Below, one piece after another: positions 1,979 through 45,013 of a stretch of 45,013 bases of DNA; positions within the stretch are counted from its first letter, which is position 1, and every line of letters begins with the position of its first letter. The notes below the pieces were generated by a model. It saw only the letters and a program-made list of their open reading frames with translations, searched no databases and was not told where the DNA came from. Source of the stretch: Dhillonvirus LM40P1; sequence record OZ035811.1; one strand, written 5' to 3'. The translations under genes and the position numbers were made by a program.

Positions 1979-3499
1979 ATGTCTGTAAACGTGGACAACC
2001 AACACCCACTCTACGCGCGCATTGCGCCTGAGTGGAAGATGATCCGTGACTGCGTTGCAGGTGAAAGGGCCGTTAAAGCGTGCGGCCCGCTTTACTTGCC
2101 GTTTCCGTCCAGTGGCGACAACACCGACCCAAAAGCGAAGGCCCGCTACAATGCATACAAGCAACGTGCGGTCTTCCTGAACGCCACCGCTCGCACGCTT
2201 AACGCGTTGCTGGGTATCGCCTTTGCGAAGCCAGTCACCATGAAGCTGTCCGGTAAAATCGCCGAGCTTATCGACGACGTAGACGGCAGCGGAATGCCAT
2301 TGCCGCAGTTACTGCGTGGAGCGATGTCGGAAGTGCTGCAATCCGGGCGAGCCGGTTTTATGGTGGACTATGACCGCCAGGCGCATTTTGACGAACTGGG
2401 TAACGTCGTGCCGCAAACCGCCGCAGAGATGGCGATGCACCGTCCGCTCATTAAGCTGTACACGGCAGAGCAGATCATCAATTGGCGACAGACCCACGGG
2501 CAGGACACCTTGATCGTGCTGAAAGAGTGCGACGAAATCAGCACCGAAGATACCGACGATTTCGCAAACCACGAAGTTACGATATGGACCGAGCTACGAA
2601 TGGTCAACGGCAAAGCACACGCCCGCCGCTGGTTTTTCAACGCAGACACGTCCGAAGTGCAGATGGATTTACCGCGTGGCTTTACCAAAACCGACCTGGT
2701 GCCGCTGGTAGATTCTGCCGGTCGCGCACTGGATAGCCTGCCGTTTTGCTGGTGTGGTGCGGTTGATAACAACGCCACCCCGGACGCCGCACCGCTGGCT
2801 GATATTGCGTCCATCAACATTAAGCACTACAACGCGGAAGCGGACGTTGCTGAGATTGCGCACATCGTAGGCCAGCCGACGCTAATCACTACCGGCCTGA
2901 CCCAATCATGGGCTGATAAAAACCTGAAGGGTGGCATCGCGCTCGGTGCGACGAAGGGCGTTATCCTGGGCCAGAACATGGACGCCAAACTGCTTCAGGC
3001 CGAAGAACGCAACCTGTCCGTGGCATTGTGTGAACGCCGTGAGAAACAGATGGCTAAACTCGGTGCGGCGCTGGTGGAGAAGGGGAGCGCACCTAAAACG
3101 GCAACAGAAGCGGCCTACGACGCGCAGACTGATAACAGTATCTTGTCGCTGATTGCCGGTAACGTTGAGAAGGCATTCAACAAGGCGCTTCAGATCGTGC
3201 AGTTGTTCACTGGTGACACCGCCGAGCAGACTGTAACCCTGAACAAGTTCTACACCGAAATCACGGTGGATGCGCAGTTGATGACAGCAATGATGAGCGG
3301 TGTACAGACTGGGACGGTCCGTCTTTCTGATTTCATCAAATGGATGATGGCACAGGGTGTAATCGACGATTCGCAGACTGTAGACCAGGTGGAAGACGAC
3401 TTGCGGAATCAGAATCCGTTGCCGCAAATGTCACCGGATGCGGTAAACTTGGACGATGACGAATCGGACAAGGTAGATGACGATGCCGAGGAAAATTAA
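1979..3499 (+). CDS. portal protein
   Basis: 506 aa ORF directly after terminase with AGAGGA SD; size and gene order typical of portal; acidic C-terminus. Confidence 0.7.
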   Translation: MSVNVDNQHPLYARIAPEWKMIRDCVAGERAVKACGPLYLPFPSSGDNTDPKAKARYNAYKQRAVFLNATARTLNALLGIAFAKPVTMKLSGKIAELIDDVDGSGMPLPQLLRGAMSEVLQSGRAGFMVDYDRQAHFDELGNVVPQTAAEMAMHRPLIKLYTAEQIINWRQTHGQDTLIVLKECDEISTEDTDDFANHEVTIWTELRMVNGKAHARRWFFNADTSEVQMDLPRGFTKTDLVPLVDSAGRALDSLPFCWCGAVDNNATPDAAPLADIASINIKHYNAEADVAEIAHIVGQPTLITTGLTQSWADKNLKGGIALGATKGVILGQNMDAKLLQAEERNLSVALCERREKQMAKLGAALVEKGSAPKTATEAAYDAQTDNSILSLIAGNVEKAFNKALQIVQLFTGDTAEQTVTLNKFYTEITVDAQLMTAMMSGVQTGTVRLSDFIKWMMAQGVIDDSQTVDQVEDDLRNQNPLPQMSPDAVNLDDDESDKVDDDAEEN

Positions 3500-4586
3500 C
3501 CAACGACTGGCGGATCGCATGATTCGCCGTCACATATTCACCCAGCGCCTGAGCAATGAGCAGGCGCGTAAAGTGCTGGCAATGTGGCAAAAATTCCGTC
3601 CTACGTTACTTGGTAAGCTGACCGAATTACTTGAGGGCAAGAAGTCAATGAGCAATAAGGCGCTTACCACTCTGCTAACCCAAATCGACAAAACGGTTAA
3701 GACCGAACTGCGCGACGAGTTTAAAGTGCTGGCTGAAGGTCTGGCGGAGTTTGCCGATACCGAGGCTGAATATCTGACCGACACATTAACGGCAGCACTG
3801 CAACCTGCGCTTTCAGTCCCTGCCGTTGAGGTGGTTGGTGTAGTGACAGGTGCGCAGATTGCAGCGACGGCTATGAAAAATCCATTCCAGGGCAACACGC
3901 TTATGCAATGGCCTGATTCTCTGTCAGAATGGACCAGAACGCAGATCAGCAATCAGGTGCGCGCCGGATTTATCCAGGGCAAACCTACTATGCAAATTAT
4001 TGCGGACGTCAAGCGCGCGTTGGGCGGTCGTAGCGCGCAGGCCATTTCAAGCGTGGTCAAGTCCGCAGTCAACCACTATGCAGCGACCGCACGCGAATTA
4101 ATGGTAAAAGCAAATGATGATATTCTCGACGGTCGCCAGTGGCTTTCTACACTGGATACTCACACCTCAACGCTCTGTCAGTTACGCGATCGCCTGTTTT
4201 ATCCGGTTGATGTTACCCCCGAAACAAAAGGGAAACGGGACGGGAAAGTGGTGGCTGGATCACAGTATGGCGCTGGTCCGGGCAAGCTACATTATTGTTG
4301 CCGTTCTACCGAGACGTGGAAAGTCAAGGGTATGGAAGATTGGCCCAGTGGTAAGCGTCCGGCACTGAAGGCCGAAGCGGGTAAACTGCTAAGTGAGCAG
4401 GTCAGTGCTAAGACGGACTTCTTCTCCTGGGTACAGCGCCAGCCGCGGCATATCCTTGAGGAATTATACGGAGTGCAGCGCGCGGACCAGATCTTGCGGG
4501 GCGTGAAAGTTCCGACCATGTTTAACGACGCGGGCGAGCTTATGACGATTCAACAACTGAAAAATAAGGGGTTATGGCGTGATTAA
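3477..4586 (+). CDS. minor head / head morphogenesis protein (SPP1 gp7 or Mu F-like position)
   Basis: 369 aa ORF overlapping portal 3' end; conserved position after portal. Confidence 0.45.
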   Translation: MTMPRKINQRLADRMIRRHIFTQRLSNEQARKVLAMWQKFRPTLLGKLTELLEGKKSMSNKALTTLLTQIDKTVKTELRDEFKVLAEGLAEFADTEAEYLTDTLTAALQPALSVPAVEVVGVVTGAQIAATAMKNPFQGNTLMQWPDSLSEWTRTQISNQVRAGFIQGKPTMQIIADVKRALGGRSAQAISSVVKSAVNHYAATARELMVKANDDILDGRQWLSTLDTHTSTLCQLRDRLFYPVDVTPETKGKRDGKVVAGSQYGAGPGKLHYCCRSTETWKVKGMEDWPSGKRPALKAEAGKLLSEQVSAKTDFFSWVQRQPRHILEELYGVQRADQILRGVKVPTMFNDAGELMTIQQLKNKGLWRD

Positions 4587-4887
4587 ATACGCAGCAGTCG
4601 GATTGATTCTCGGCCTTGTAATTGGGTTCTGGCAAGGTGACAACTATCGTGCTGGCGTGGTGGCGGAGGCGGCGCAGGAAGCGCAAGCCAAAGCCCAACG
4701 GCAGCAAACTAAGGTAATCCATGAGTCGGTACAGAAAGAGCAGGCCCGCGAAGTGGAGTTCCGCACAGTTGAGAAAGAGGTGATTAAATATGTCACGCGT
4801 CCTGATCGCGATAATTGTAAGTTTGATGCTGACCGCGTGCGGATCAAGCAACGTGCCGTTGATGCCGCTAACGGAATCAGCAATTAA
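4579..4887 (+). CDS. i-spanin (Rz-like)
   Basis: GTG start with AAGGGG SD; N-terminal TM helix AAVGLILGLVIGFW followed by Ala/Gln/Glu-rich coiled-coil region and C-terminal Cys. Confidence 0.6.
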   Translation: MIKYAAVGLILGLVIGFWQGDNYRAGVVAEAAQEAQAKAQRQQTKVIHESVQKEQAREVEFRTVEKEVIKYVTRPDRDNCKFDADRVRIKQRAVDAANGISN

Positions 4888-5020
4888 GCCGCCGTGTAAG
4901 TTTGAGTCGCCATCGGAAGATCCGGACGAAGATTTAGCGATTGATGTGCGAAATATGAAATGCGGGGCGGAGTTAAGGGCACAAGTGCTGGATTTGCAGA
5001 AATTAATTAAGGGGCCGTAA
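4790..5020 (+). CDS. o-spanin (Rz1-like outer membrane lipoprotein)
   Basis: Starts inside the Rz-like gene in another frame; signal peptide with lipobox LTAC; short Pro-containing mature part; GAGGTG SD. Confidence 0.6.
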   Translation: MSRVLIAIIVSLMLTACGSSNVPLMPLTESAIKPPCKFESPSEDPDEDLAIDVRNMKCGAELRAQVLDLQKLIKGP

Positions 5021-5032
5021 TGGCCCCTTTCT
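5008..5032. terminator. bidirectional rho-independent terminator
   Basis: AGGGGCC...GGCCCCT hairpin followed by T-run, flanked by A-run; sits between convergent genes. Confidence 0.5.
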
Positions 5033-5033
5033 A

Positions 5034-5795
5034 TTAGCGCGGAATACCGCAGATTTCGTTTAGTGTCTTCACGTCAAGCGCTACTGCCGTTGACTTCTTC
5101 TCTTCCTGCGGGATGAACTGTTTCACTTCAGGCCATGCCTTAATAAGTTTGGTGTCTGTAGTGTACTTATTCAGAGTACCCATAACTGACAATTTAAACT
5201 CATCGTATTTAGCACGTAAATCGCGGCGCGCCTTGTCGTTCTTATCCAGACGTTTGCAAAATTCATGCTCTGCCGGGTAATCTGCACGACCGCGAGGCTT
5301 GTAGATCGGCACTTGCTCACCTTCCGCGTTAATTTCCACCAGCGCCGTAAGTAGCGCAGTTTCAAACCCAGGTACGATTTCGCCAATGTCCGGGGCCATC
5401 GAGTTATTGTAGCGGTCTTCCCAGTAGCCTCGGTGACAGCGGCTGCTGTAGTTATCACCGCTCAATGACAGTGTGCGGATGTTACCACCCATGTTGACTT
5501 CGAACGTTGCATCGTACACAGCACCAATGCCGTGGGGCATGTCCTTGTTATGGCTGAAGGTTGCACGGCTGGCGTACACGCTTATGCTAAACATGCCGTT
5601 ATTTGTGTCTTGATAGCTGCGCATCATTTTCTGCAACCCAACGAAGCTGGTAACACCTTTCGGCATCTGATCCAGAGTGATAGCCAGCGCCAGGTCGCGC
5701 GATTCGGTCATTAACTTTTTGGCCTGCTTCGTGATTTCGTGGCCTGCCAGGATGTTAGCCAGGATTTGCTTTTTAATGTCTTTAGTCAGTCTCAT
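5034..5795 (-). CDS. hypothetical protein (antisense insert in the late block)
   Basis: ATG at 5795 (internal to listed ORF) with GAGGAAA SD; 253 aa; own promoter and terminator; no motif recognised. Confidence 0.6.
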   Translation of the reverse strand: MRLTKDIKKQILANILAGHEITKQAKKLMTESRDLALAITLDQMPKGVTSFVGLQKMMRSYQDTNNGMFSISVYASRATFSHNKDMPHGIGAVYDATFEVNMGGNIRTLSLSGDNYSSRCHRGYWEDRYNNSMAPDIGEIVPGFETALLTALVEINAEGEQVPIYKPRGRADYPAEHEFCKRLDKNDKARRDLRAKYDEFKLSVMGTLNKYTTDTKLIKAWPEVKQFIPQEEKKSTAVALDVKTLNEICGIPR

Positions 5796-5825
5796 TGTTG
5801 TTTCCTCGTTTGTTGGTGTGCAACC

Positions 5826-5854
5826 AATATATTGCAACCAATTAGCCAATGCAA
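5826..5854 (-). promoter_or_regulatory. sigma70-like promoter (TTGCAT-17-TATATT) with ATTGGTTGCA repeats
   Basis: -35/-10 hexamers at 17 bp spacing on minus strand, about 30 bp upstream of the 5795 start; same architecture as four other leftward promoters. Confidence 0.5.
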
Positions 5855-5944
5855 GCAAATTTTGTGATTATTTTTATCACTGATAATATTAAGGGCGTGA
5901 AGTCGAGCGGGTGGCCCGCTCTGCCACAATCCCTGGGGGATGTT

Positions 5945-6649
5945 ATGAAACTGACTAAAGCAGAATATGACGCGTTGCCTGAAGGCATGAAAGCATTGTT
6001 TGTTGCCGATGGTGACGGGTACAAGGCGACGTTTATGACCGCCGAAGAAGTACAGGCCGAGATCAAAGGTCTGAAGGATAACAACGCGAAGCTGGTAGGC
6101 GAGAAAAAGGCAGAAGCCGAACGCCGTGCCGAAGCGGAGCGACTCGCTAAAGAGAAAGAGGAAGCCGCAGCGCGCAAGAACGGCGACCTTGAAGCGATCG
6201 ATAAGTCCTGGCAGGACAAGTTTACTAAATACGATGCGGATACGAAGGGCAAAATCGAAGCCTACCGCAAACAGATTCACGATCTTACCATCGGCAGCAC
6301 TGCCAAAGACCTGGCATCAAAGCTGTTCGGTAAGAACGCTGGCATTATGCAACGCCACGTCATGGACCGCCTTGCGCTGGAAGAAGGCGAAGACGGCAGT
6401 CTGAAAGTGCGCGTATTGCAGGACGGCAAACCATCCGCACTGACTCTGGAAGAACTGGAGAAAGAGTTCCGTAGTAACGAAGATTTCGCGTCCGTCCTGG
6501 CGGGTACGCCTGCCGGTGGTGCGCCGAGCAAACCGACCCATGTAATCGACGATCCGAAATCTAAGATTCAGATGGGTCATAGCTTCGGCATCACTGACTT
6601 GACCAAACAGGCCAGCGATATTATCGCCAAACTGGGCGACGACGAGTAA
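5945..6649 (+). CDS. putative capsid scaffolding protein
   Basis: ATG at 5945 with GGGGGA SD; charged coiled-coil-type sequence (KKAEAERRAEAERLAKEKEE); directly upstream of major capsid gene. Confidence 0.5.
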   Translation: MKLTKAEYDALPEGMKALFVADGDGYKATFMTAEEVQAEIKGLKDNNAKLVGEKKAEAERRAEAERLAKEKEEAAARKNGDLEAIDKSWQDKFTKYDADTKGKIEAYRKQIHDLTIGSTAKDLASKLFGKNAGIMQRHVMDRLALEEGEDGSLKVRVLQDGKPSALTLEELEKEFRSNEDFASVLAGTPAGGAPSKPTHVIDDPKSKIQMGHSFGITDLTKQASDIIAKLGDDE

Positions 6650-6654
6650 GCAGG

Positions 6655-6678
6655 TTGCCCGCGAAAGCGGGCAATTTT
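6655..6678 (+). terminator. rho-independent terminator / attenuator
   Basis: TTGCCCGC gaaa GCGGGCAA hairpin followed by TTTT. Confidence 0.5.
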
Positions 6679-6746
6679 GCGAGCGTGAAAAATTAGGGTA
6701 ACATTAAAAGCACTGGGCGATTGCTCTCTACTCAAAGGATAAACTT

Positions 6747-7868
6747 ATGTCTTTAACAGTGTTCCAGCGTAAACTCGTCACCGCGGTTACGCAAATGATC
6801 CCCGACAACTTGAACGTCTTCAACGCTGCCGCTAACGGCGCGGTCGTTCTCGGTACTGGCGAAGTGCTGAAAGATGTTGTCGAGAAGATGTCTGTAGGTC
6901 TGATCGCCAACCTGGTGTCTGACCGTAACGCATATGCCCCGGTTGGTACTCCTGCCGATGCGAAAGTGCTGGCGCGTATGCTGACCAACTCCGTTAACCT
7001 GTCCGCGAAAGTCGGTCCTGTTGCAATCACCAAAGCTATGATGGCTAAAATCGAAACCAACGTTAACAGCGTTGCGGCTGAGATTGCGGCACAGGCTACT
7101 CAAGCTATCTTGCTGCACTACCTGAAAGCGGGTATCGGCGCTGGTAAAGCTGCGATCGACTCTAACGCTGCGGCGAAATATACCCAACCGGCGCGCGTTG
7201 ACGGTGTAGGCGGTCGTACCTTCCCGACCCTGGCAGACTTCCCGCTGGCGGCGGCTAAGTTCGGCGATCAGGCATCTCTGATTAAGTCCTGGTTTATGGA
7301 CGGTGTGACCTGGGCTAACTTCATTGCATATCAGGCGCTGCCTTCTGCTGAGCAGGTGTTCGCGATCGGCGACCTTCAGGTAATGGGTGATGGCTTAGGC
7401 CGCCGCTTTATTATCTCCGATGCCGCTGCCGATGCAATGGGCGCTGGCAAAATGCTGGGTCTTGTTCCGGGCGCGGTAGCAGTTACTACCAACGGTCTGG
7501 ATATGCTGGCGCAGGAGCGTGGTGGTAACGAGAACATCGAGCGCTGGTGGCAGGGTGAGTTTGACTTTAACGTCGCTGTTAAAGGCTATCGCATGACCGC
7601 GGCAGCACGCGCAGGCGTTGAAGGCGTCCGTTCCTTCAAACTGGCTGATATTACCAATACCAGTAACTGGGAACTGGATCAGGGCCAGGTCGATAACGCG
7701 CCGTACACTACCTACGACGTTGGCGGCACGGATACTGAAGAGGGATCTACCACTTCACTGAAAGAGAAAGGTCGTCGTCGTAAGCAGGACGCGCAGGCCG
7801 TACCGACCCGCCACATCAAGGAAACTGCCGGTGTGTTGGTAACTCTGACGGCAACCACCGCATCTTAA
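6747..7868 (+). CDS. major capsid protein
   Basis: 373 aa ORF with strong AAAGGA SD, flanked by terminators on both sides, positioned after scaffold gene. Confidence 0.7.
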   Translation: MSLTVFQRKLVTAVTQMIPDNLNVFNAAANGAVVLGTGEVLKDVVEKMSVGLIANLVSDRNAYAPVGTPADAKVLARMLTNSVNLSAKVGPVAITKAMMAKIETNVNSVAAEIAAQATQAILLHYLKAGIGAGKAAIDSNAAAKYTQPARVDGVGGRTFPTLADFPLAAAKFGDQASLIKSWFMDGVTWANFIAYQALPSAEQVFAIGDLQVMGDGLGRRFIISDAAADAMGAGKMLGLVPGAVAVTTNGLDMLAQERGGNENIERWWQGEFDFNVAVKGYRMTAAARAGVEGVRSFKLADITNTSNWELDQGQVDNAPYTTYDVGGTDTEEGSTTSLKEKGRRRKQDAQAVPTRHIKETAGVLVTLTATTAS

Positions 7869-7886
7869 TCGGTGCATACCCAAACG

Positions 7887-7912
7887 GGGCGGGCTTAAGC
7901 CCGCCTTTTTTA
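7887..7912 (+). terminator. rho-independent terminator
   Basis: GGCGGGC ttaa GCCCGCC hairpin followed by TTTTTT. Confidence 0.6.
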
Positions 7913-20702: not shown

Positions 20703-20726
20703 AAGGGGCCGTTTGGCCCCTTTCTT
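20703..20726. terminator. bidirectional rho-independent terminator
   Basis: AGGGGCC gttt GGCCCCT hairpin flanked by A-run and T-rich run between convergent genes. Confidence 0.55.
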
Positions 20727-21690
20727 AATACATATTAGGAAGGACAATCAGCGGTGTTGGTACGACAACATTGCGGTTAGGCATCTGGAATTGCTGCCGT
20801 GAATAGTTGCCAATGACGCGGTTTTTCGCTGCACCAACGACGCTACCCGCCATGCGTATCCCGTTCATGCGTACGTGGTTATAACCGCTATTGTTTTCAA
20901 TAAGCGCGCCCGTGTATGAAAGCTGAATAAGGCTGTTACCGATATTCTGCCACCCTGCGCTAAGGTCAACCGTCCCGTTAAACACAAACGGCTTATTGAC
21001 GGTGGAGAATGTAACCTGGCCTGCGTTGTTGGTCATCGTGATACCGGTTCCGGGGCTTGGCGGTGTGTTATTGAATATAACCAATTCCATGTCAACGGCA
21101 GCACCCACATCATCAATCCCGCCGTAAGCCGCATTGCGGACGATAATACTGCCTCCATCGAAGCCAACCGACACGTTAGGGTCATCCCAACGGGCGAACG
21201 GAACACCTCCGACCGGCAGCGGCATACTTCCGTTCACATGGACGCGCTGCGCGTAGCGACAGGTCATCAGCCGAGCGACGTTTGATATGGCGGTGAAGTC
21301 CGTCGAGTTAGCCACCAGAAGCCCAGCATTACGCGACCCCACCGGCAGCACTTCCATAATCGTTCCCGCCCAGGTTGGAAGCCCGCTATAAGCGCCCAGC
21401 GCGTCAGCACCGTGCAGCGTAATTCCGCCATCACCATTTCGAGATATTGACGTTACAAACATCGGATCGGGTATTACCAGTGTTTGGTCGAACACTTCCA
21501 CCACTTCAACGGGATTAGTTAGCACGACTATAAGCTGCGATCCAGGCGTTAGCGGAGTATTGACTGTTAGCGTCTTGTCAGATTGGCAGCGCTGATTAAA
21601 ATTGGTACAAAAAGACGGAGCACGAAGCCCCGCCGTAATTTCCATTCTTGGACGTCCATCGTTGTATTCGATAAGGATACCTGCACCCAT
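20725..21690 (-). CDS. hypothetical beta-rich protein (receptor-binding protein candidate)
   Basis: ATG at 21690 with GGGAG SD; 321 aa, Gly/Asn/Thr/Val-rich; co-transcribed downstream of a lipoprotein gene. Confidence 0.4.
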   Translation of the reverse strand: MGAGILIEYNDGRPRMEITAGLRAPSFCTNFNQRCQSDKTLTVNTPLTPGSQLIVVLTNPVEVVEVFDQTLVIPDPMFVTSISRNGDGGITLHGADALGAYSGLPTWAGTIMEVLPVGSRNAGLLVANSTDFTAISNVARLMTCRYAQRVHVNGSMPLPVGGVPFARWDDPNVSVGFDGGSIIVRNAAYGGIDDVGAAVDMELVIFNNTPPSPGTGITMTNNAGQVTFSTVNKPFVFNGTVDLSAGWQNIGNSLIQLSYTGALIENNSGYNHVRMNGIRMAGSVVGAAKNRVIGNYSRQQFQMPNRNVVVPTPLIVLPNMY

Positions 21691-21692
21691 AA

Positions 21693-21917
21693 TTACCACT
21701 CCCGTGATTTAACTGATACCGTACCAGAGAAGTTACCGTCTGAATCTGCCGCCAAACCGGTGAATCGCATGTCAATGTCTCCGGCAGCGACCTTTTGCCC
21801 GTCAACATAACGCAACATGCAGCTTCCCGCAACGTAGGTAACGCAATCGCCATTATGACGCTCAACAGCACAACCAGACAGCATAGCAACGACTAAAATA
21901 CTTAATAAAGTTTTCAT
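21693..21917 (-). CDS. small lipoprotein (superinfection-exclusion candidate)
   Basis: ATG at 21917 with GGAGAT SD; signal peptide MKTLLSILVVAMLSGC with lipobox; 74 aa. Confidence 0.55.
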   Translation of the reverse strand: MKTLLSILVVAMLSGCAVERHNGDCVTYVAGSCMLRYVDGQKVAAGDIDMRFTGLAADSDGNFSGTVSVKSREW

Positions 21918-37568: not shown

Positions 37569-39833
37569 ATGAGAAATATAGAATTTGCGATCACACCCCC
37601 CGCTAAGAAAGGCGAATCTGCGGTAGCTCATAACCAGTCCATGACTACCGCCGAGTTTTTCGAATTTATCCAGGATGCACCGGTAGTGTCGTCAGTTTGC
37701 ATTAACGGTACTGAAGATAAAAAAGAATATGCGCGACGTAAGCGTAAAGGCGACGGCATTGTGGCTACAACCGCCGATGGCACGCGTAAAAAGACTGGCG
37801 TGGTTAGCCGCTCGATCCTGTTCTTCGACCTGGACCGTGCTGACAACCGCACACTTACCCGCTGCCGCAGGGCTTTCCGCAAGTCCGGCCTGGAATATGT
37901 CTACCACACCACCACCGGCGACCGCCACCCGTTGAAAGACGGCAAGCGCTGTGTGCGTTTCCTGGTGCTGACAAACAAGCCAGTTCCGGCGGAAGACCTG
38001 GGCCGCGCGCAGGCTGCACTGCTTGAGCAACTGGGTCTTACCGACGCGGGCTTTGATGACTGCTCGAAAGACACAAACCGCCTTATGTACCTGCCCCACC
38101 AGCAGGCTAAGGTCGAGTGCCATGAAGGTAAACGCGCTAACGTGCGTCGTCTGCTTCGCCTGGCTGACAAGATGGGTATTGAGCAGGAAACGTTTCGCCG
38201 TGAACTGGTGCAGGGCGACGACGAGCAGATGAACGGCATCCTCGACTGGTGTTTCCAGGCTGGTTTTGAGCCGTTACCATCCGGGCGCGGTTATGAAGTA
38301 CCGTGCCCAAACGAACATCTGCACTCTGGTGAAGGGTCTACCGCTATCATGCTTAAGGATGGCGAGATTCGTTTCAAATGTATGCACACCGGCAACGGAT
38401 GCTGTTCTGAACTGAACAAACACCAACACCTGGCGCTGCGAATGATTGGTATCCCGGATATTTATAACGTGGAGCCACACAACATGTCACGCAAACAGAT
38501 CTCGGCAATCCTGCCGGGTCTGGACGACGAAGAAGTGGACGCGCAGTACGAGCACATGGTTGACCTGGTGGGTGAAGGTGAGGATTATGCGTCCTGTACT
38601 GACGCAGACCTGGAAGACGAACCGACGGCGTTGTTCTCGAAGCACGACCCGATCATCGAAGGTCTGATTAACTTCAAATCGACCTGGTACGCAGCGGGTG
38701 AGTCGAACATTGGTAAGTCCTTCTTTGTCATGGGTCAGATGGCTGCCGTTGCCGCTGGCATCCCGTTCGGCGGCGCGAAGGTCGTCCAGTCCCATTGCTT
38801 CTACTTCGATGCGGAAGGTGGCGAGGCGTCACTGCAACGTAAAGAAGCGTTGCAGATTAAATATGAGCACGACCTGGACAAGCTGCACATTATCGACCTT
38901 CAGGCACGCGGCTGGGATATTACGAGCAAGTCCGGCCTGCGTGAAGTCATCAGCTTTATCAACCGCACCGCGGATGGTGAGCCGGTCGGCCTGGTGGCGT
39001 TCGACTCCCTTAACCAGACCGTAGCGCTGCGTTCGGCTGACGCCAAACCGTTCGATGAGAACAACGCCAGCGATATGGGTGAGATTGTCAAGGCGCTGAA
39101 AGCCATTGCGGAAAACACAGGCGGCAGTGCGGGCGTCATCCACCACCCGGCGAAGGGTGCAAACGGCAGCAGATCCCCGCGTGGGTCCGGTGCGCTACAT
39201 GGCGCGGTGGATTCTGCATTCTTCCTGGAACAGCCAGACGAGAATCAGCCAGGCCAGCTTAACCTCTATCATGAGAAAGCCCGTAACGGCGTGAAACAGG
39301 GTCCGCGCGGCTTCGTGCTACTGAAGTGCAAAGTGTCCATTAACGAGCGCAAGTCCGACACGTTCGAAGCGCACCAGTCCACTAACCCTGGTCCAGACTT
39401 CGGCGATGTAGTTGCCGGTTGGGACGTCAAGCCAATCCAGGCCACCCCGCGTGATGAGACTCTGTACCTTGTACCGGTAGCTCTGGCCCCGTTCGCTATC
39501 GAACAGGCGAAGGCCGCGGGCAAGCAGGCTGTTAAGGAAGAAAACCCCGCCGGTCCGCGCAATGAAAAAGAGAAAGTGCTTTACGCAGCGCTCGAAGCGT
39601 TGATGGAAGAGAATCCGGGACACCATGGCTTCAGCAAATCGGCAATCGTCCGCAAAGCCGGACTGGCGAAAGGTGGCACATCGACGAAGCCAATAGACGA
39701 TATGCGTGAGCGCGGAATCATCGGCTTTTACAAAGACCCGGACACCGGGGCCATTTACGGGTCGTCGAATCTGGTTATCAATTCACAAATACCTATGCAA
39801 TTGACGGCGACGGATGATGATTTGAAAGATTAA
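37569..39833 (+). CDS. primase-helicase (N-terminal primase-like domain, zinc motif, RecA-type ATPase)
   Basis: Walker A GESNIGKS, Walker B-like VGLVAFDSL, Cys/His cluster CPNEHLH...CMHTGNGC. Confidence 0.65.
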   Translation: MRNIEFAITPPAKKGESAVAHNQSMTTAEFFEFIQDAPVVSSVCINGTEDKKEYARRKRKGDGIVATTADGTRKKTGVVSRSILFFDLDRADNRTLTRCRRAFRKSGLEYVYHTTTGDRHPLKDGKRCVRFLVLTNKPVPAEDLGRAQAALLEQLGLTDAGFDDCSKDTNRLMYLPHQQAKVECHEGKRANVRRLLRLADKMGIEQETFRRELVQGDDEQMNGILDWCFQAGFEPLPSGRGYEVPCPNEHLHSGEGSTAIMLKDGEIRFKCMHTGNGCCSELNKHQHLALRMIGIPDIYNVEPHNMSRKQISAILPGLDDEEVDAQYEHMVDLVGEGEDYASCTDADLEDEPTALFSKHDPIIEGLINFKSTWYAAGESNIGKSFFVMGQMAAVAAGIPFGGAKVVQSHCFYFDAEGGEASLQRKEALQIKYEHDLDKLHIIDLQARGWDITSKSGLREVISFINRTADGEPVGLVAFDSLNQTVALRSADAKPFDENNASDMGEIVKALKAIAENTGGSAGVIHHPAKGANGSRSPRGSGALHGAVDSAFFLEQPDENQPGQLNLYHEKARNGVKQGPRGFVLLKCKVSINERKSDTFEAHQSTNPGPDFGDVVAGWDVKPIQATPRDETLYLVPVALAPFAIEQAKAAGKQAVKEENPAGPRNEKEKVLYAALEALMEENPGHHGFSKSAIVRKAGLAKGGTSTKPIDDMRERGIIGFYKDPDTGAIYGSSNLVINSQIPMQLTATDDDLKD

Positions 39834-39842
39834 ATTTTGCGC

Positions 39843-39921
39843 GCATTGGTTGCCAATATGGTTAATTTGTGCGCGCATTGGTTGCCAGATTGGGTATTAA
39901 ATCTATATCGCATTGGTTGCC
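39843..39921 (+). repeat. three direct repeats of GCATTGGTTGCC at 32-35 bp spacing
   Basis: Copies at 39843-39854, 39875-39886, 39910-39921, each followed by an A/T-rich hexamer. Confidence 0.75.
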
Positions 39922-39958
39922 GTGTAGTGCTAAATAAGTGAATAGTTATGCAAAATAA

Positions 39959-40131
39959 GTGCATAAAACAAACGGGACAAAAACGGGACAAACGACAAAC
40001 GGGACAAAACGGGACGTCCCGCCGTCCCCCTCAGGAGTGGCGCGGGTTTGAGGCAAACGGGACAAGCGGGACAGACCACAGTCTTTCAGACTAGACGGGG
40101 GGTATTGTCCCCCCTCCGTCTGAGACTGCAT
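39959..40131 (+). repeat. non-coding module copy 2: TGCATAAAAC, CGGGACAA iterons, GGGACGTCCCGCC palindrome, GCGGGTTT box, conserved hairpin
   Basis: Matches 11600-11772 in element order; hairpin stem conserved while loop differs (tattgt versus tcaatgg). Confidence 0.7.
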
Positions 40132-40288
40132 AAAATCTCTGGTTGCATAATCAACGGCAGCATAGTGAAAAATGCGGCGGGGGTAGATCTCGGCAACCAA
40201 TGCGGGTTGAAGAGTGGAGAGTGAAAAATGCAGTTTGGTAATGACAACTGATAGCGATCAGCATTTTCATGCGCGTGATTAATATTGG

Positions 40289-40317
40289 TTGCATTCGTCC
40301 TGCCAGGGTGTTAGATT
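40289..40317 (+). promoter_or_regulatory. sigma70-like promoter (TTGCAT-17-TAGATT) flanked by ATTGGTTGCA motifs
   Basis: ATTGGTTGCATtcgtcctgccagggtgTTAGATTGGTTGCAC about 30 bp upstream of the 40346 gene. Confidence 0.5.
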
Positions 40318-40345
40318 GGTTGCACACCAACATGAGGACTGAACG

Positions 40346-40651
40346 ATGAGAGCATTAATCTGGAATTACACAATGGCTGTGGCGAAGCTGTACGAAGCGA
40401 AGCACACAAACGGCAACGCAGACGACGCGCGCCAGGCTGTCATCCTGGCCCAGCAGGGAATCATGAACGCGTTCGACAATATGTTTGCCAGCCTGGACGA
40501 ACTGGAACCGCTGCGCGTGGCAATCTGCGAATATGCGATGGCATTTGCCCGTGAACGCCTGGCATACCGGTTTGGTATCGGGAAAACGGCAGTGGCTAAC
40601 ATCGCCCGCATTCAGGCCCAGCGTGAGCTGCACGCCATACTCGCGAAATAA
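40346..40651 (+). CDS. hypothetical protein
   Basis: ATG with GAGGA SD; 101 aa. Confidence 0.5.
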   Translation: MRALIWNYTMAVAKLYEAKHTNGNADDARQAVILAQQGIMNAFDNMFASLDELEPLRVAICEYAMAFARERLAYRFGIGKTAVANIARIQAQRELHAILAK

Positions 40652-40660
40652 GGGGCCAAA

Positions 40661-40930
40661 ATGACACGCAGACGCGCTCAATGGCTTTCATGGCACATTC
40701 CCCTACATAGCATCCGTTTATGGGCGCAGAACGCGATTGAGGGCGATTCTGTGTTCTGGAGCTATCGGGATGACGTCAAGCCGCTGACGCAGACCAGAAA
40801 GCTGCACCAGTTCATGAACGAACACGGACTGCCGGTGAAAACATCATTGCAACCAATCGGCATCCGTATTACATTACGCCGTAAGCCAATCGTTGAGCAG
40901 GTTGGCAAACACAGGAGACTGACAAAATGA
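40661..40930 (+). CDS. hypothetical protein
   Basis: ATG with AAGGGG SD; 89 aa. Confidence 0.45.
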   Translation: MTRRRAQWLSWHIPLHSIRLWAQNAIEGDSVFWSYRDDVKPLTQTRKLHQFMNEHGLPVKTSLQPIGIRITLRRKPIVEQVGKHRRLTK

Positions 40931-41523: not shown

Positions 41524-41660
41524 GCGCAACCATCCGTGATATGCTTATGCATAACCGCTTTGAGATTGGCGGTCGTGTATTCCGTAACTACTTCGTTGCG
41601 CGCGCCTGGGCGCGCCATATTGGCAAACCGGAGAGTGAAATTAAATGCTACACGATGTGA
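41519..41660 (+). CDS. hypothetical small protein (46 aa)
   Basis: ATG at 41519 overlapping upstream stop (ATGA). Confidence 0.3.
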
Positions 41661-41932
41661 TGTTTTGGTTTGGTATATTCTGCGCAACCTTGCTGGTTGG
41701 CGCTGTCACCCTGGTTATTGCAGTCTGGTTTATATGGCCTGCCGTTGAGGCCGTGAGCATTACCCGCATGACCTTCGCCTACTACAAGAAACACAGCATC
41801 ACGCAACATTCCAGCAGGCTTAGGGTGTGGTGGCTGTGGTATCGCGATATGCTCGGAGGCAGGCGGTTCGAGGCCATCAGGTCACACGGTTGGGAATGGC
41901 AAGGCGTAGGACGCTGGTCAATTTCAGAATAA
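41645..41932 (+). CDS. small membrane protein
   Basis: ATG with GAGAGTGA SD; hydrophobic N-terminal helix. Confidence 0.45.
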   Translation: MLHDVMFWFGIFCATLLVGAVTLVIAVWFIWPAVEAVSITRMTFAYYKKHSITQHSSRLRVWWLWYRDMLGGRRFEAIRSHGWEWQGVGRWSISE

Positions 41933-41952
41933 TTATGCAGTCGTGATATAGT

Positions 41953-41986
41953 CCCCAGTGAGGTTTAATCTTACTGGGGCTTTTTT
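41953..41986 (+). terminator. rho-independent terminator
   Basis: CCCCAGT...ACTGGGG hairpin followed by TTTTTT, ending at the holin start codon. Confidence 0.55.
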
Positions 41987-42289
41987 ATGGAAGTTTTCCA
42001 CAAATTAGATGAATGGGTAATTATCGCCGCTGCCGGGGTGGCGGGTGGCTTCGTAGGTGCGCGTATGCACCCGGAAGCTGCACAAGGACCGGTAAACTTT
42101 GTGCTGTTCGTCGTCGTTGGCTTCCTGTGTGCGGTATTCGGCGCACCAGCCATCGCCGAACTGACCGGATTGACCAGTCAGCGCATGATCGCAGGTCTTG
42201 GATTCGTAACGGCAATCTTCTGGATGCCGATTGCGGCACGGATCCGAGAGCTAATCGCTAATGCCCGCTTTCCGGGAGGTGCCAAATGA
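41987..42289 (+). CDS. holin candidate
   Basis: 100 aa with multiple hydrophobic helices, first gene of a membrane-protein/lysozyme cassette; start has no clean SD. Confidence 0.45.
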   Translation: MEVFHKLDEWVIIAAAGVAGGFVGARMHPEAAQGPVNFVLFVVVGFLCAVFGAPAIAELTGLTSQRMIAGLGFVTAIFWMPIAARIRELIANARFPGGAK

Positions 42290-42552
42290 TTTTCGGCGTC
42301 GATGTTTGTGCGTGGTTTGGCGTTATGTTCTTCCTCATCGTCGGCGTGTCGTCGCTGTACAACGTCTACGCCGCATCCGTGAATGACGGCCTTGTTGGTC
42401 GTGTGCTCTATCTCTTAACGGCAGTCTTCTGCGTGGTCGGCTTGATGCAAACCGGGCATGTGGAGAACGCCACTATCAACGCCATTTGCTGGCTGTTTGC
42501 ATTGCGCACCCTGCGCAATGCTGTTTTGAAAGGTGTAAAACATGCAATTTAG
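42286..42552 (+). CDS. holin / antiholin candidate
   Basis: 88 aa with hydrophobic helices, ATGA overlap with upstream gene, directly upstream of endolysin. Confidence 0.45.
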   Translation: MIFGVDVCAWFGVMFFLIVGVSSLYNVYAASVNDGLVGRVLYLLTAVFCVVGLMQTGHVENATINAICWLFALRTLRNAVLKGVKHAI

Positions 42553-43027
42553 TGAGAATGGTTTGCGGTTTACTGCCGCATGGGAGACGTTTAGCCCTGT
42601 GCCCTACTTCGCCACGAAGAAAGAGCAGGAGCAAGGTCTTTATACCTGGGGCTTCGGTCATACGGGCACTAACCCGCCGCGCAGCATTACCCGCACTGAG
42701 GCAATGGAACTACTGCGCAAGGATATTGCCATTGCTGAGAAGTTTGTTCAGCGCGCAATGCCGATCGGGGCGTTCAACCAGGCCCAGTACGACGCGCTTG
42801 TGGATCTTGTCTTCAACGCAGGGCCGCGTGCCATCGGTGCTAATACCGGAACTGGTCGTGCAGTTCGTGCCGGAGATATTCAGACGATCCGTGCTAAACT
42901 GCCTCAATTCCGTATGCAATCCGGGGTTGTTGTCAAGGGTCTGGTGCGTCGCGCTAACGGACGCCTGGCACTATTCGACGGTAAGCAGTGGGATGTTGCC
43001 GAGCGTATCGGTCGTAATTCAGTTTAA
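42542..43027 (+). CDS. endolysin (phage lysozyme fold)
   Basis: N-terminal ENGLRFTAAWE...GLYTWGFGHT and QAQYDALVDLVFNAG segments match the phage lysozyme pattern. Confidence 0.8.
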   Translation: MQFSENGLRFTAAWETFSPVPYFATKKEQEQGLYTWGFGHTGTNPPRSITRTEAMELLRKDIAIAEKFVQRAMPIGAFNQAQYDALVDLVFNAGPRAIGANTGTGRAVRAGDIQTIRAKLPQFRMQSGVVVKGLVRRANGRLALFDGKQWDVAERIGRNSV

Positions 43028-43036
43028 GGGGGAGAT

Positions 43037-43444
43037 ATGTTAAAAAGTATTCTTGATCATAATGCGGACGCGCTTGACGCGTTGGCTAAAACGGACGACG
43101 CTGGCGCGCGTCGCATCATCGCAGACACCATCAGCCATGCCGGGGTGTTTGGTGCAAGCCTTCCGGGACCGAAGCCTGATGTGAAGGTGACAAGCGCAAC
43201 GGTATCGGTAGAGCCAGAGGCTGTTAAAATCGGCACCCAGTCTAAGGCTACGGTGGCGGTGCAACCGGCAGGGGCAACCGATAAATCCGGCGTGTGGATT
43301 AGTGGGTCGCCTACCATCGCCACCGTTGACGCTTCGGGTAATATCGACGGCAAAACTCCAGGTTCTGTCGATATTATTTGGGTGGCTAAGGATGGAAGCG
43401 GGGTGTCGGGCCGAAAAACGGTAACTGTGTCAAACTCCGAGTAA
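43037..43444 (+). CDS. Ig-like (Big_2-type) domain protein
   Basis: C-terminal beta-rich segment VTSATVSVEPEAVKIG...TVTVS typical of bacterial Ig-like domains. Confidence 0.45.
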   Translation: MLKSILDHNADALDALAKTDDAGARRIIADTISHAGVFGASLPGPKPDVKVTSATVSVEPEAVKIGTQSKATVAVQPAGATDKSGVWISGSPTIATVDASGNIDGKTPGSVDIIWVAKDGSGVSGRKTVTVSNSE

Positions 43445-43450
43445 AGATCA

Positions 43451-43476
43451 AGCCCGCAACTATGGCGGGCTTTTTA
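43451..43476 (+). terminator. rho-independent terminator
   Basis: AGCCCGC...GCGGGCT hairpin followed by TTTTT. Confidence 0.6.
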
Positions 43477-44914: not shown

Positions 44915-44925
44915 TCTCACCACAG

Positions 44926-44947
44926 GCCCGCTTACGCGGGCTTTTTT
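44926..44947 (+). terminator. rho-independent terminator
   Basis: GCCCGC ttac GCGGGC hairpin followed by TTTTTT. Confidence 0.6.
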
Positions 44948-44973
44948 GTGTCTGCAATTCTCCCTGATATAAT
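44946..44973 (+). promoter_or_regulatory. extended -10 promoter (TGATATAAT) reading off the window end
   Basis: TGnTATAAT at 44965-44973; would drive the terminase genes if the genome is circularly permuted. Confidence 0.4.
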
Positions 44974-45013
44974 CGTGACAGGTGGTTGGGCCACCTCCTA
45001 TGTTGCCGATGGT

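Follow-up and report, generated by a model that had tools for sequence, protein, structure and literature searches.

A probable Jersey-type two-component spanin at the end of the predicted packaging and head unit of a Dhillonvirus genome

Background

Nearly all experiments on phage spanins have used lambda Rz/Rz1, and the complementation tests reported by Kongari and colleagues covered T4 PseT.3/PseT.2 and T1 gp11 only (Kongari 2018, PMC6139136). The same work described the Jersey family of overlapped spanins, which includes those of HK578, JL1, EP23 and SO-1 and in which the o-spanin has two constant cysteines 22 residues apart, and a predicted C-terminal helix-forming segment was reported for the Jersey-type o-spanin in comparison to the unstructured Rz1 of lambda (PMC6139136). 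In T4 the two-component spanin PseT.3/PseT.2 is encoded at a distance from holin gene t and endolysin gene e, showing that linkage of these genes is not required (PMC6139136). Our search of the literature on the Jersey-type family found no experiment on any member. Dhillonvirus genomes, which concern us here, are packaged by a headful mechanism and terS is the conventional point at which their records are opened (PMC9022532).

The DNA analysed here, referred to as the window, is a stretch of 45,013 nt that represents an essentially complete Dhillonvirus genome given as a linear record cut just 5' of terS. Over the spanin locus it was 99.7% identical to Dhillonvirus LM40P1. A sequence-only reading had proposed an overlapping i-spanin/o-spanin pair of Rz/Rz1 type, flanked by the head morphogenesis gene and an antisense insert and unusually far from the holin and endolysin genes. 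The pair and its neighbours are compared below with 16 Dhillonvirus genomes read through the spanin region and with spanin systems from other phages.

Results and Discussion

The spanin genes and their overlap

Our analysis of the region following the head morphogenesis gene recovered both overlapping ORFs exactly as they had been delimited, with matches to PHROG families of Rz-like spanins (Table 1), and the antisense gene beyond them encodes Nmad5 (PF18757, 1.1e-42). Taken with the comparisons that follow, it is very probable that the pair is a two-component spanin of the Jersey overlapped family, belonging to its short EP23-to-SO-1 subfamily, and that it constitutes the last genes of a predicted packaging and head unit, a placement that is unremarkable.

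Table 1. Positions of the spanin genes, the lysis cassette and the predicted control elements in the window.
Feature	Position	Strand	Details
Head morphogenesis gene (SPP1 gp7/Mu F-like)	3477..4586	+	phrog_241 5.4e-112; directly upstream of i-spanin
Head morphogenesis/i-spanin junction	4566..4586	+	SD-like AAGGGG; GTG at 4579; upstream stop TAA at 4584-4586
i-spanin, 102 aa	4579..4887	+	GTG start; ORF begins MIKYAAVGLILGLVIGFWQGDNYR; phrog_2536 Rz-like spanin 9.9e-31
i-spanin/o-spanin overlap, 98 nt	4790..4887	+	different frames; dual-coding
o-spanin, 76 aa	4790..5020	+	ATG start; N-terminus MSRVLIAIIVSLMLTAC, then GSS; phrog_5672 1.9e-22, phrog_1267 1.3e-9
G+C-rich hairpin	5009..5029		AAGGGGCC-GTAAT-GGCCCCTT; covers last o-spanin codons and stop; between convergent o-spanin and Nmad5
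Other lipoprotein ORF	21693-21917	-	downstream of tail-tip gene; overlaps 324-aa phrog_1265 gene
Predicted lysis-unit control element	41944..41979	+	extended -10-like TGATATAGT; 12-bp hairpin directly after; T-run ending at holin ATG
Holin, 100 aa	41987..42289	+	phrog_2359 6.9e-27
Second holin or antiholin candidate, 88 aa	42286..42552	+	phrog_2508 holin 1.6e-20
Endolysin, 161 aa, phage lysozyme	42542..43027	+	PF00959 1.8e-22; phrog_7 1.5e-34; without N-terminal hydrophobic segment
Terminator-like hairpin after Big_2 gene	43450..43472	both	bidirectional; predicted lysis-unit end
terS upstream region	44924..44997	+	terminator-like hairpin 44924-44943; extended -10 TGATATAAT 44965-44973; short hairpin ~44981-44997

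The i-spanin was predicted to carry a transmembrane helix at approximately residues 4–18, with a hydropathy maximum of 2.19 over 15 aa at residues 1–15, followed by a helical periplasmic domain. This N-terminal helix was kept in all 16 genomes, in which its single conserved cysteine (Cys80) was also invariant. A single-sequence AF2 model placed helices at residues 5–72 and 84–97 around a loop at 73–83 and, given its low confidence (pLDDT 66.6, pTM 0.22), was used solely for secondary structure. The start of the i-spanin gene overlaps the end of the head morphogenesis gene by 8 nt throughout the sample and the junction sequence, GGCGTGATTAA, was identical in 16/16 genomes; translation of the i-spanin is probably coupled to that of the head morphogenesis gene.

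The o-spanin begins with the signal peptide MSRVLIAIIVSLMLTA, which is followed by C17 and GSS and completes the lipobox L-T-A-C17, and with glycine rather than aspartate at position +2 the mature lipoprotein would be expected to sort to the outer membrane. Both the lipobox, in the form L[TS]AC, and the +2 glycine were invariant in every genome compared (16/16), as were the periplasmic Cys36 and Cys58, whose spacing of 22 residues is that reported for Jersey o-spanins, and a proline-rich linker is present.

As the o-spanin gene begins 211 nt into the i-spanin gene and runs 133 nt past its end, the pair is overlapped and not embedded, and this overlapped geometry was kept in each of the 16 genomes. 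Synonymous divergence was approximately 0.86–1.02 outside the overlap in comparison to 0.22–0.26 inside it in both frames, while dN/dS values calculated outside the overlap were 0.16 for the i-spanin and 0.15 for the o-spanin, indicating that both genes are maintained under purifying selection.

Relationship to described spanin families

Placement in the Jersey family follows its curated membership, as the relatives HK578, JL1, EP23 and SO-1 are all assigned to it (Kongari 2018, PMC6139136). In comparison to the EP23 genome (L015) the i-spanin was 75% and the o-spanin 78% identical, within the range found for Dhillonvirus homologues outside the close clade of the window (72–76% for the i-spanin and 67–78% for the o-spanin), and identities to the closest relatives were 94–100%. 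The window shares with the EP23-SO-1 subfamily its overlapped genes, a short i-spanin for which two helices are predicted, the spacing of the o-spanin cysteine pair and a location downstream of the head morphogenesis gene, and differs from it in nothing of substance. Within Dhillonvirus the window, Ioannina, LM40P1, PaulFeyerabend and SECphi18 form a clade with an i-spanin of 102 aa and an overlap of 98 nt, whereas in most other members the i-spanin has 109 aa and the overlap 119 nt. At the same position in the GenBank record of phage PaulFeyerabend the pair already bears the labels i-spanin and o-spanin, and it is known and curated in a well-sampled group of E. coli phages.

The proposed Rz/Rz1 type holds as a functional class, but not as a sequence family or an architecture. 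A Pfam scan of both proteins returned no family at E<=0.01, so neither the lambda Rz nor the Rz1 model was matched; membership in the lambda sequence families was therefore rejected and the identification is carried by PHROG and the curated Jersey family. Common to the pair and lambda Rz/Rz1 are the predicted topology of a type II inner-membrane protein with an outer-membrane lipoprotein, periplasmic cysteines and a presumed role in membrane fusion after wall degradation. In lambda, however, the o-spanin gene is embedded and the genes stand at the end of the lysis cassette, whereas here they are overlapped and do not adjoin the endolysin gene, which lies 6.5 kb upstream. The T4 pair PseT.3/PseT.2 differs in having a separated architecture and belongs to another sequence family in another genomic neighbourhood.

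More distant homologues were found in Jerseyvirus and Kagunavirus-like phages of the Guernseyvirinae (ZCSE9 gp08, Bas70_0008/0009, SeF1 Gp_009/010), which possess a homologous C-terminal half of the i-spanin (VxKYVxxPxRxxCxFD) and a homologous o-spanin; tblastn against Jerseyvirus ZCSE9 gave E values of 7e-13 and 5e-9 for the two spanins. The same PHROGs describe the spanins and both holins in these phages, and the gene order is alike, with holin, holin and endolysin upstream of terS and the spanins lying after the head morphogenesis gene and before the scaffold gene. Their i-spanin, in contrast, is 128 aa long and approximately 36% identical overall, and a Hoc-like decoration gene together with small ORFs separates it from the head morphogenesis gene, so that no direct overlap occurs.

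Spanin genes were missed in many Dhillonvirus and Jerseyvirus GenBank records, the i-spanin being unannotated in Ioannina and SECphi18 and the o-spanin in ZCSE9.

The spanin function is assigned from topology, from family membership and from the architecture of the genes. The pair could alternatively be an inner-membrane protein and a lipoprotein with another envelope role, such as superinfection exclusion or a membrane function linked to head assembly, for which its location in the head module, the lack of a Pfam match and our failure to find a published test of Jersey-type spanins could be cited. This we regard as very improbable, as every class-defining spanin feature that can be tested in sequence is present and conserved, and as the phage encodes holins and an endolysin with no other candidate for outer-membrane disruption. 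In Klebsiella phage VLCpiS13d, moreover, an i-spanin homologue directly follows the endolysin and holin genes and is accompanied by an overlapped lipoprotein ORF, and in the window a separate lipoprotein ORF, downstream of the tail-tip gene, fits the superinfection exclusion role, which is assumed for it from position.

The lysis cassette and the search for a competing spanin

PHROG and Pfam matches agreed with the earlier assignment of holin and endolysin candidates to a cassette ending with the endolysin gene (Table 1). The possibility that another spanin accompanies the endolysin was rejected, as the next two genes downstream are those for a Big_2 Ig-domain protein and a phosphoesterase, and no lipobox ORF was found near the cassette in the circularised genome under relaxed criteria. 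Across both strands of the circularised genome only two of 2,676 start/ORF combinations carried a credible lipoprotein signal, one of which was the o-spanin, and for this reason its occurrence beside an i-spanin is beyond chance. The first lipobox filter was too strict and returned the o-spanin alone, the relaxed scan adding the minus-strand ORF at 21693-21917. The latter was rejected as a spanin, as it has no i-spanin partner, stands beside the tail-tip gene and is far from the lysis genes.

These results also bear on whether a second outer-membrane disruptor, either a unimolecular spanin or a disruptin-like peptide, lies beside the endolysin and leaves the pair redundant or vestigial. Small membrane-protein ORFs do surround the cassette, for example a 95-aa ORF at 41645-41932 (phrog_2531, unknown function), but the result of the lipobox search, the Ig-domain product of the gene after the endolysin and the strong purifying selection on the spanin pair, which is hence not vestigial, make this extremely improbable.

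Genome geometry and predicted transcription units

The spanins and the holin-endolysin cassette had been placed about 37 kb apart, a figure true only of the linear stretch, the two ends of which adjoin each other in circular relatives. The separation is an artefact of linearisation, because the circular map was opened at terS, and on that map 6,564 nt separate the endolysin stop from the i-spanin start on the same strand, in the order endolysin, Ig-domain gene, phosphoesterase gene, terS, terL, portal, head morphogenesis gene and spanins. Distances between genes will in general be misleading near opposite ends of linearised, circularly permuted phage genomes.

Nor could the proposal that such splitting of lysis genes is unusual be upheld, as the layout was invariant across the Dhillonvirus sample (16/16), was also present in Jerseyvirus and Kagunavirus-like phages and has the precedent of T4. 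The spanin locus matched 157 phage records, and the split layout was seen in Jerseyvirus ZCSE9, Jerseyvirus SeF1 (with the same four PHROGs), Bas70 and Dhillonvirus P78.

The element preceding the holin gene (41944..41979) was conserved in 9 relatives and is predicted to be the start and control of the lysis unit. The region upstream of terS is predicted to start a unit comprising terS, terL, portal, head morphogenesis gene and spanins; 9 relatives also keep its TGnTATAAT motif and its hairpin, in which stem changes preserve pairing. The lysis unit and terS are separated by two conserved terminator-like hairpins, the first of which stands at the same place, with a changed stem, in the relative L016. 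The G+C-rich hairpin at the end of the o-spanin gene is predicted to serve as terminator for both o-spanin and Nmad5. It was flagged on the minus strand in the window and on both strands in L016, and it is conserved in relatives, which have a better T-run; on the plus strand of the window it was not flagged by a simple scan because the T-run is weak (TCTATT). In both the lysis and the packaging unit, an extended -10 promoter of similar type appears to precede a 5' hairpin.

The extended -10 motifs were spotted by eye and then tested by pattern searches, a generic sigma-70 scanner having missed them with match counts no higher than in shuffled sequence. TGATATART gave 3 matches against 0.29 expected, while matches to the pattern TGNTATAAT by itself lacked significance and a search for GTGATATAGT allowing one mismatch was uninformative. 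The earlier suggestion that the spanins come under late structural transcription fits the conserved terminator and promoter predictions and the 8-nt overlap with the head gene; a position at the 3' end of the packaging and head unit is plausible as a prediction, the promoter and terminator calls being consensus matches only.

Transcription could instead be continuous, with the spanins carried on one long late transcript from the holin-proximal promoter that is antiterminated through the hairpins at 41953-41979, 43450-43472 and 44924-44943, giving one lysis-packaging operon with no functional split. Lambda pR'/Q provides comparable antitermination read-through, and the extended -10 with its immediate terminator-like hairpin upstream of the holin recalls pR'-tR'; the genes from holin to o-spanin also share one strand with no antisense gene between them. 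We judge such read-through rather improbable, as a separate and better extended -10 (TGnTATAAT) stands just upstream of terS and is conserved in the 9 relatives, as the two intervening hairpins keep their positions while their stem sequences are altered, and as no antiterminator gene was identified in a search that was not systematic.

Proposed mechanism and significance of the placement

Under the preferred reading of the pair as a Jersey-type spanin, a mechanism can be taken from the lambda and T4 paradigms and applied to this phage by inference. The i-spanin would be anchored in the inner membrane through its N-terminal helix and extend its helical domain into the periplasm, while the o-spanin would receive its lipid at Cys17 and be directed to the outer membrane, in its inner leaflet. 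Binding between the C-terminal parts of the two proteins may then produce disulfide-stabilised complexes that span the periplasm and are restrained by the peptidoglycan mesh until holin triggering is followed by wall degradation by the endolysin, whereupon the spanins would fuse inner and outer membranes and complete lysis. Both genes would close the predicted terS-terL-portal-head morphogenesis unit, with the hairpin at 5009-5029 marking its putative end.

The split itself may be a conserved regulatory design of Dhillonvirus and Guernseyvirinae, in which translational coupling ties spanin dose to packaging and head expression and the holin and endolysin are gated separately by a promoter-proximal, terminator-like hairpin that also sequesters the holin ribosome-binding site; this interpretation is tentative and on balance unlikely. 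In Klebsiella phage VLCpiS13d the endolysin, holin and spanin genes all occupy the interval that separates the head morphogenesis gene from the scaffold gene, and on the same tentative reading this interval may be an ancestral slot for lysis genes.

The identification of the pair matters little beyond annotation quality. Spanins do not set the timing of lysis and their late accumulation is enough, so that a place in the lysis cassette is not required of them. The Dhillonvirus layout would thus provide a further example that spanins require late expression but can be unlinked from holin and endolysin.

The spanin pair and its conservation

The overlapping i-spanin and o-spanin genes proposed in the sequence-only reading are a real spanin pair and were rightly recognised. 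Both ORFs were recovered from the ORF listing and the raw sequence, share 98 nt in different frames and matched 'Rz-like spanin' families in PHROG (i-spanin phrog_2536, 9.9e-31; o-spanin phrog_5672, 1.9e-22), and no Pfam family was matched by either protein. The sole strongly hydrophobic segment of the i-spanin is its extreme N-terminus and its only cysteine is Cys80, while the o-spanin has a classical lipoprotein signal with the lipobox L-T-A-C17 and Gly at +2, together with Cys36, Cys58 and seven prolines; topology and lipidation are predicted from these features. A single-sequence AlphaFold model of the i-spanin, used only as secondary-structure support because of its low confidence (pLDDT 66.6), placed helices at residues 5–72 and 84–97 on either side of a loop (73–83) containing Pro75 and Cys80.

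Features of the spanin pair, the lysis region and associated elements
Feature	Position	Strand	Description
i-spanin ORF	4579-4887	+	GTG start, 102 aa, begins MIKYAAVGLILGLVIGFWQGDNYRAGVV
o-spanin ORF	4790-5020	+	ATG start, 76 aa, begins MSRVLIAIIVSLMLTACGSSNVPLMPL
second lipoprotein ORF	21693-21917	-	74 aa, begins MKTLLSILVVAMLSGC; phrog_4281, family without assigned function
95-aa ORF	41645-41932	+	hydrophobic N-terminal half; phrog_2531, family without assigned function
extended -10 motif	41944-41952	+	TGATATAGT; adjoins holin hairpin
terminator-like hairpin	41953-41979	+	directly 5' of holin ATG
holin	41987-42289		phrog_2359, 6.9e-27
second holin	42286-42552		phrog_2508, 1.6e-20
endolysin (lysozyme)	42542-43027		PF00959, 1.8e-22
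Big_2 Ig-like domain protein gene	43037-43444	+	PF02368, 2.8e-12; directly 3' of endolysin
terminator-like hairpin	43450-43472	bidirectional	after Ig-domain gene
terminator-like hairpin	44924-44943	+	before terS
extended -10 motif	44965-44973	+	TGATATAAT; between terminator-like hairpin and terS, short hairpin after

The geometry of the pair was invariant in all 16 Dhillonvirus genomes compared (12 IMG/VR contigs and three GenBank records in addition to the window). In each, the i-spanin GTG sits inside GGCGTGATTAA and has an 8-nt overlap with the head morphogenesis stop, and the o-spanin ATG follows 211 nt further on. The lipobox keeps the form L[TS]AC with G after it, the three cysteines outside the lipobox are all retained, and a G+C-rich hairpin takes in the last o-spanin codons and stop. 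Pairwise Nei-Gojobori estimates between the window and 12 diverged relatives gave dN/dS values of 0.16 and 0.15 for the i-spanin-only and o-spanin-only parts, and dS was about four-fold lower inside the overlap in both frames (0.22–0.26 versus 0.86–1.02), the pattern expected of genuine dual coding.

The pair is already known, being annotated in GenBank and curated in the spanin literature. Positions 3400–6700 share 99.7% identity with Dhillonvirus LM40P1 and 99.6% with Escherichia phage Ioannina, and were matched by 157 phage records, nearly all Escherichia/Shigella Dhillonviruses of 44–45 kb. Orthologous ORFs at the equivalent position in PaulFeyerabend (Bas15) are annotated as i-spanin and o-spanin, and other records label one ORF 'Rz-like spanin', 'putative spanin' or 'o-spanin'. 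In their curated set, Kongari et al. 2018 assign the Dhillonviruses HK578, JL1, EP23, SO-1, SSL-2009a and EK99P-1 to the 'Jersey' overlapped spanin family, which also takes in Jersey-like and K1G-like phages; its shorter EP23-to-SO-1 subfamily has two helices, and two cysteines, at positions 45 and 67 of the alignment, are constant in its o-spanins (PMC6139136). These are 22 residues apart, as are Cys36 and Cys58 here. Identity to the homologues in a Dhillonvirus contig taken as the EP23 genome was 75% (i-spanin) and 78% (o-spanin).

Public spanin annotation is patchy. The i-spanin is absent from the Ioannina and SECphi18 records, and the o-spanin from those of ZCSE9 (homology present at 6227–6451) and VLCpiS13d (lipobox ORF at 7394–7639). 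The o-spanin start annotated in Bas70 (5839) is probably too far downstream, which would make the protein too short, as a lipobox-containing GTG start lies at 5719.

The lysis cassette and the search for another spanin

The holin and endolysin candidates at 41987–43027 were likewise borne out by PHROG holin and PF00959 lysozyme matches. When the genome was circularised and all start codons of all ORFs on either strand were scanned for lipoprotein signals (2,676 combinations), only two convincing ones emerged, the o-spanin and the ORF at 21693–21917, and the genes 3' of the endolysin code for a protein with a Big_2 Ig domain and for a metallophosphoesterase; therefore no second spanin pair was found beside the endolysin.

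The second lipoprotein ORF overlaps by 7 nt a 324-aa phrog_1265 'membrane protein' ORF (locus 20725–21917, minus strand) that closely follows the J-like tail-tip gene. This position is typical for receptor-binding and superinfection-exclusion genes of small siphoviruses (PMC8594841), and judged by its position the locus probably encodes a receptor-binding protein and a superinfection-exclusion lipoprotein. The Big_2 gene, called 'major tail protein' in some records, is an odd passenger within the predicted lysis unit and may encode a capsid or tail decoration protein. The 95-aa ORF just upstream of the holin promoter-like motif and hairpin is kept in relatives and might encode a lysis-associated or exclusion protein.

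Distance on the circular map and predicted transcription units

The window, of 45,013 bp, starts just upstream of terS (9–581) and ends past the lysis and phosphoesterase genes, and is therefore in effect the whole genome. Dhillonvirus assemblies circularise, PhageTerm predicts headful packaging and, by convention, the records begin at terS (PMC9022532; PMC13348001). When the end was joined to the start, the BLAST alignment to the SECphi18 record was unbroken across the junction, and that circular record runs on one strand through holin, holin, endolysin, Ig-domain gene(s), phosphoesterase, terS, terL, portal, head morphogenesis and spanins. The separation of about 37 kb between spanins and lysis cassette that was originally proposed is thus a linearisation artefact; from endolysin stop to i-spanin start the gap is (45013-43027)+4578 = 6,564 nt on the same strand.

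The three tabulated hairpins recur at the same positions in a relative of about 82% identity with differing stem or loop sequences. From terS to the o-spanin stop only short, weak plus-strand terminator candidates were flagged, the next convincing hairpins being at 5009–5029 and, following the capsid gene, 7886–7907. TGATATART occurred three times against 0.29 expected, a count reached in 0 of 100 shuffles. Both extended -10 motifs and their associated hairpins are kept in nine relatives. Upstream of terS, relatives have TGTTATAAT for TGATATAAT, and the stem nearest terS, AGGTGG/CCACCT in the window, becomes AGATGGC/GCCGTCT with pairing preserved. These hairpins and motifs suggest three transcription units, the first comprising holin-holin-endolysin-Ig, the second the phosphoesterase gene and a small ORF, and the third terS-terL-portal-head morphogenesis-i/o-spanin. 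The suggestion that the spanins are under late structural transcription agrees with this packaging/head unit, at the level of prediction. Transcripts reading through from the holin promoter might also reach them.

In the holin leader (41944–41986, plus strand), TGATATAGT is followed by a 12-bp hairpin (CCCCAGTGAGG/CTTACTGGGG) and CTTTTTT running into the holin ATG, and the holin's only SD-like run (GGGG) sits in the 3' arm. This element could terminate transcription close to the promoter (compare lambda pR'-tR'), stabilise the 5' end or gate translation of the holin. The terS leader (44924–44997, plus strand) comprises terminator hairpin, extended -10 and short hairpin, and the promoter-plus-5'-hairpin layout shared with the holin may mark a late promoter class of Dhillonviruses. 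The 'antisense insert' beyond the o-spanin is an Nmad5 gene (5034–5858, minus strand; PF18757, 1.1e-42) that is convergent with the o-spanin gene, the two having the 5009–5029 hairpin in common; a missense mutation in Dhillonvirus Nmad5 leads to escape from the Tmn defence system (PMC11846954).

Spread of the layout and proposed mechanism

The remaining separation had been considered unusual, but it is the norm in Dhillonvirus and its relatives, and spanins unlinked to other lysis genes are well known (PMC6139136). The published description of Dhillonvirus vB_EcoS_P78 has the same layout (holins 0031 and 0032, endolysin 0033, spanin 0040), and tblastn with the i-spanin matched 609 phage records, including 347 from Salmonella, 202 from Escherichia and 23 from Klebsiella. 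Jerseyvirus ZCSE9, with terS at 40, has holin-holin-endolysin at 39694–40733 and spanins at 5968–6451, with the head morphogenesis/Hoc-like genes on one side and the scaffold gene on the other, a slot that also holds the spanins of the Kagunavirus-like phage Bas70. In Jerseyvirus SeF1 the spanins Gp_009/010 belong to phrog_2536 and phrog_5672 and the holins Gp_063/064 to phrog_2359 and phrog_2508 (PMC9409062), the same four families as in the window. Klebsiella phage VLCpiS13d carries endolysin, holin and a homologous i-spanin, together with an overlapped, unannotated lipoprotein ORF, downstream of its head morphogenesis gene. Because the split is found in Dhillonvirus, Jerseyvirus and Kagunavirus-like phages, it is, on the gene orders compared, an old, conserved synteny common to at least two phage groups.

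By analogy with lambda Rz/Rz1 and T4 PseT.3/PseT.2 (established knowledge and PMC6139136), both subunits would build up in the envelope during late expression and, passing through the peptidoglycan mesh, connect the inner membrane with the outer one as a complex stabilised by disulfide bonds. They would act only after holin triggering and removal of the wall by endolysin, and would then fuse the two membranes. Spanins would not be timing determinants, so their location in another late unit would carry no obvious cost, which would explain how the layout has stayed the same in different genera.
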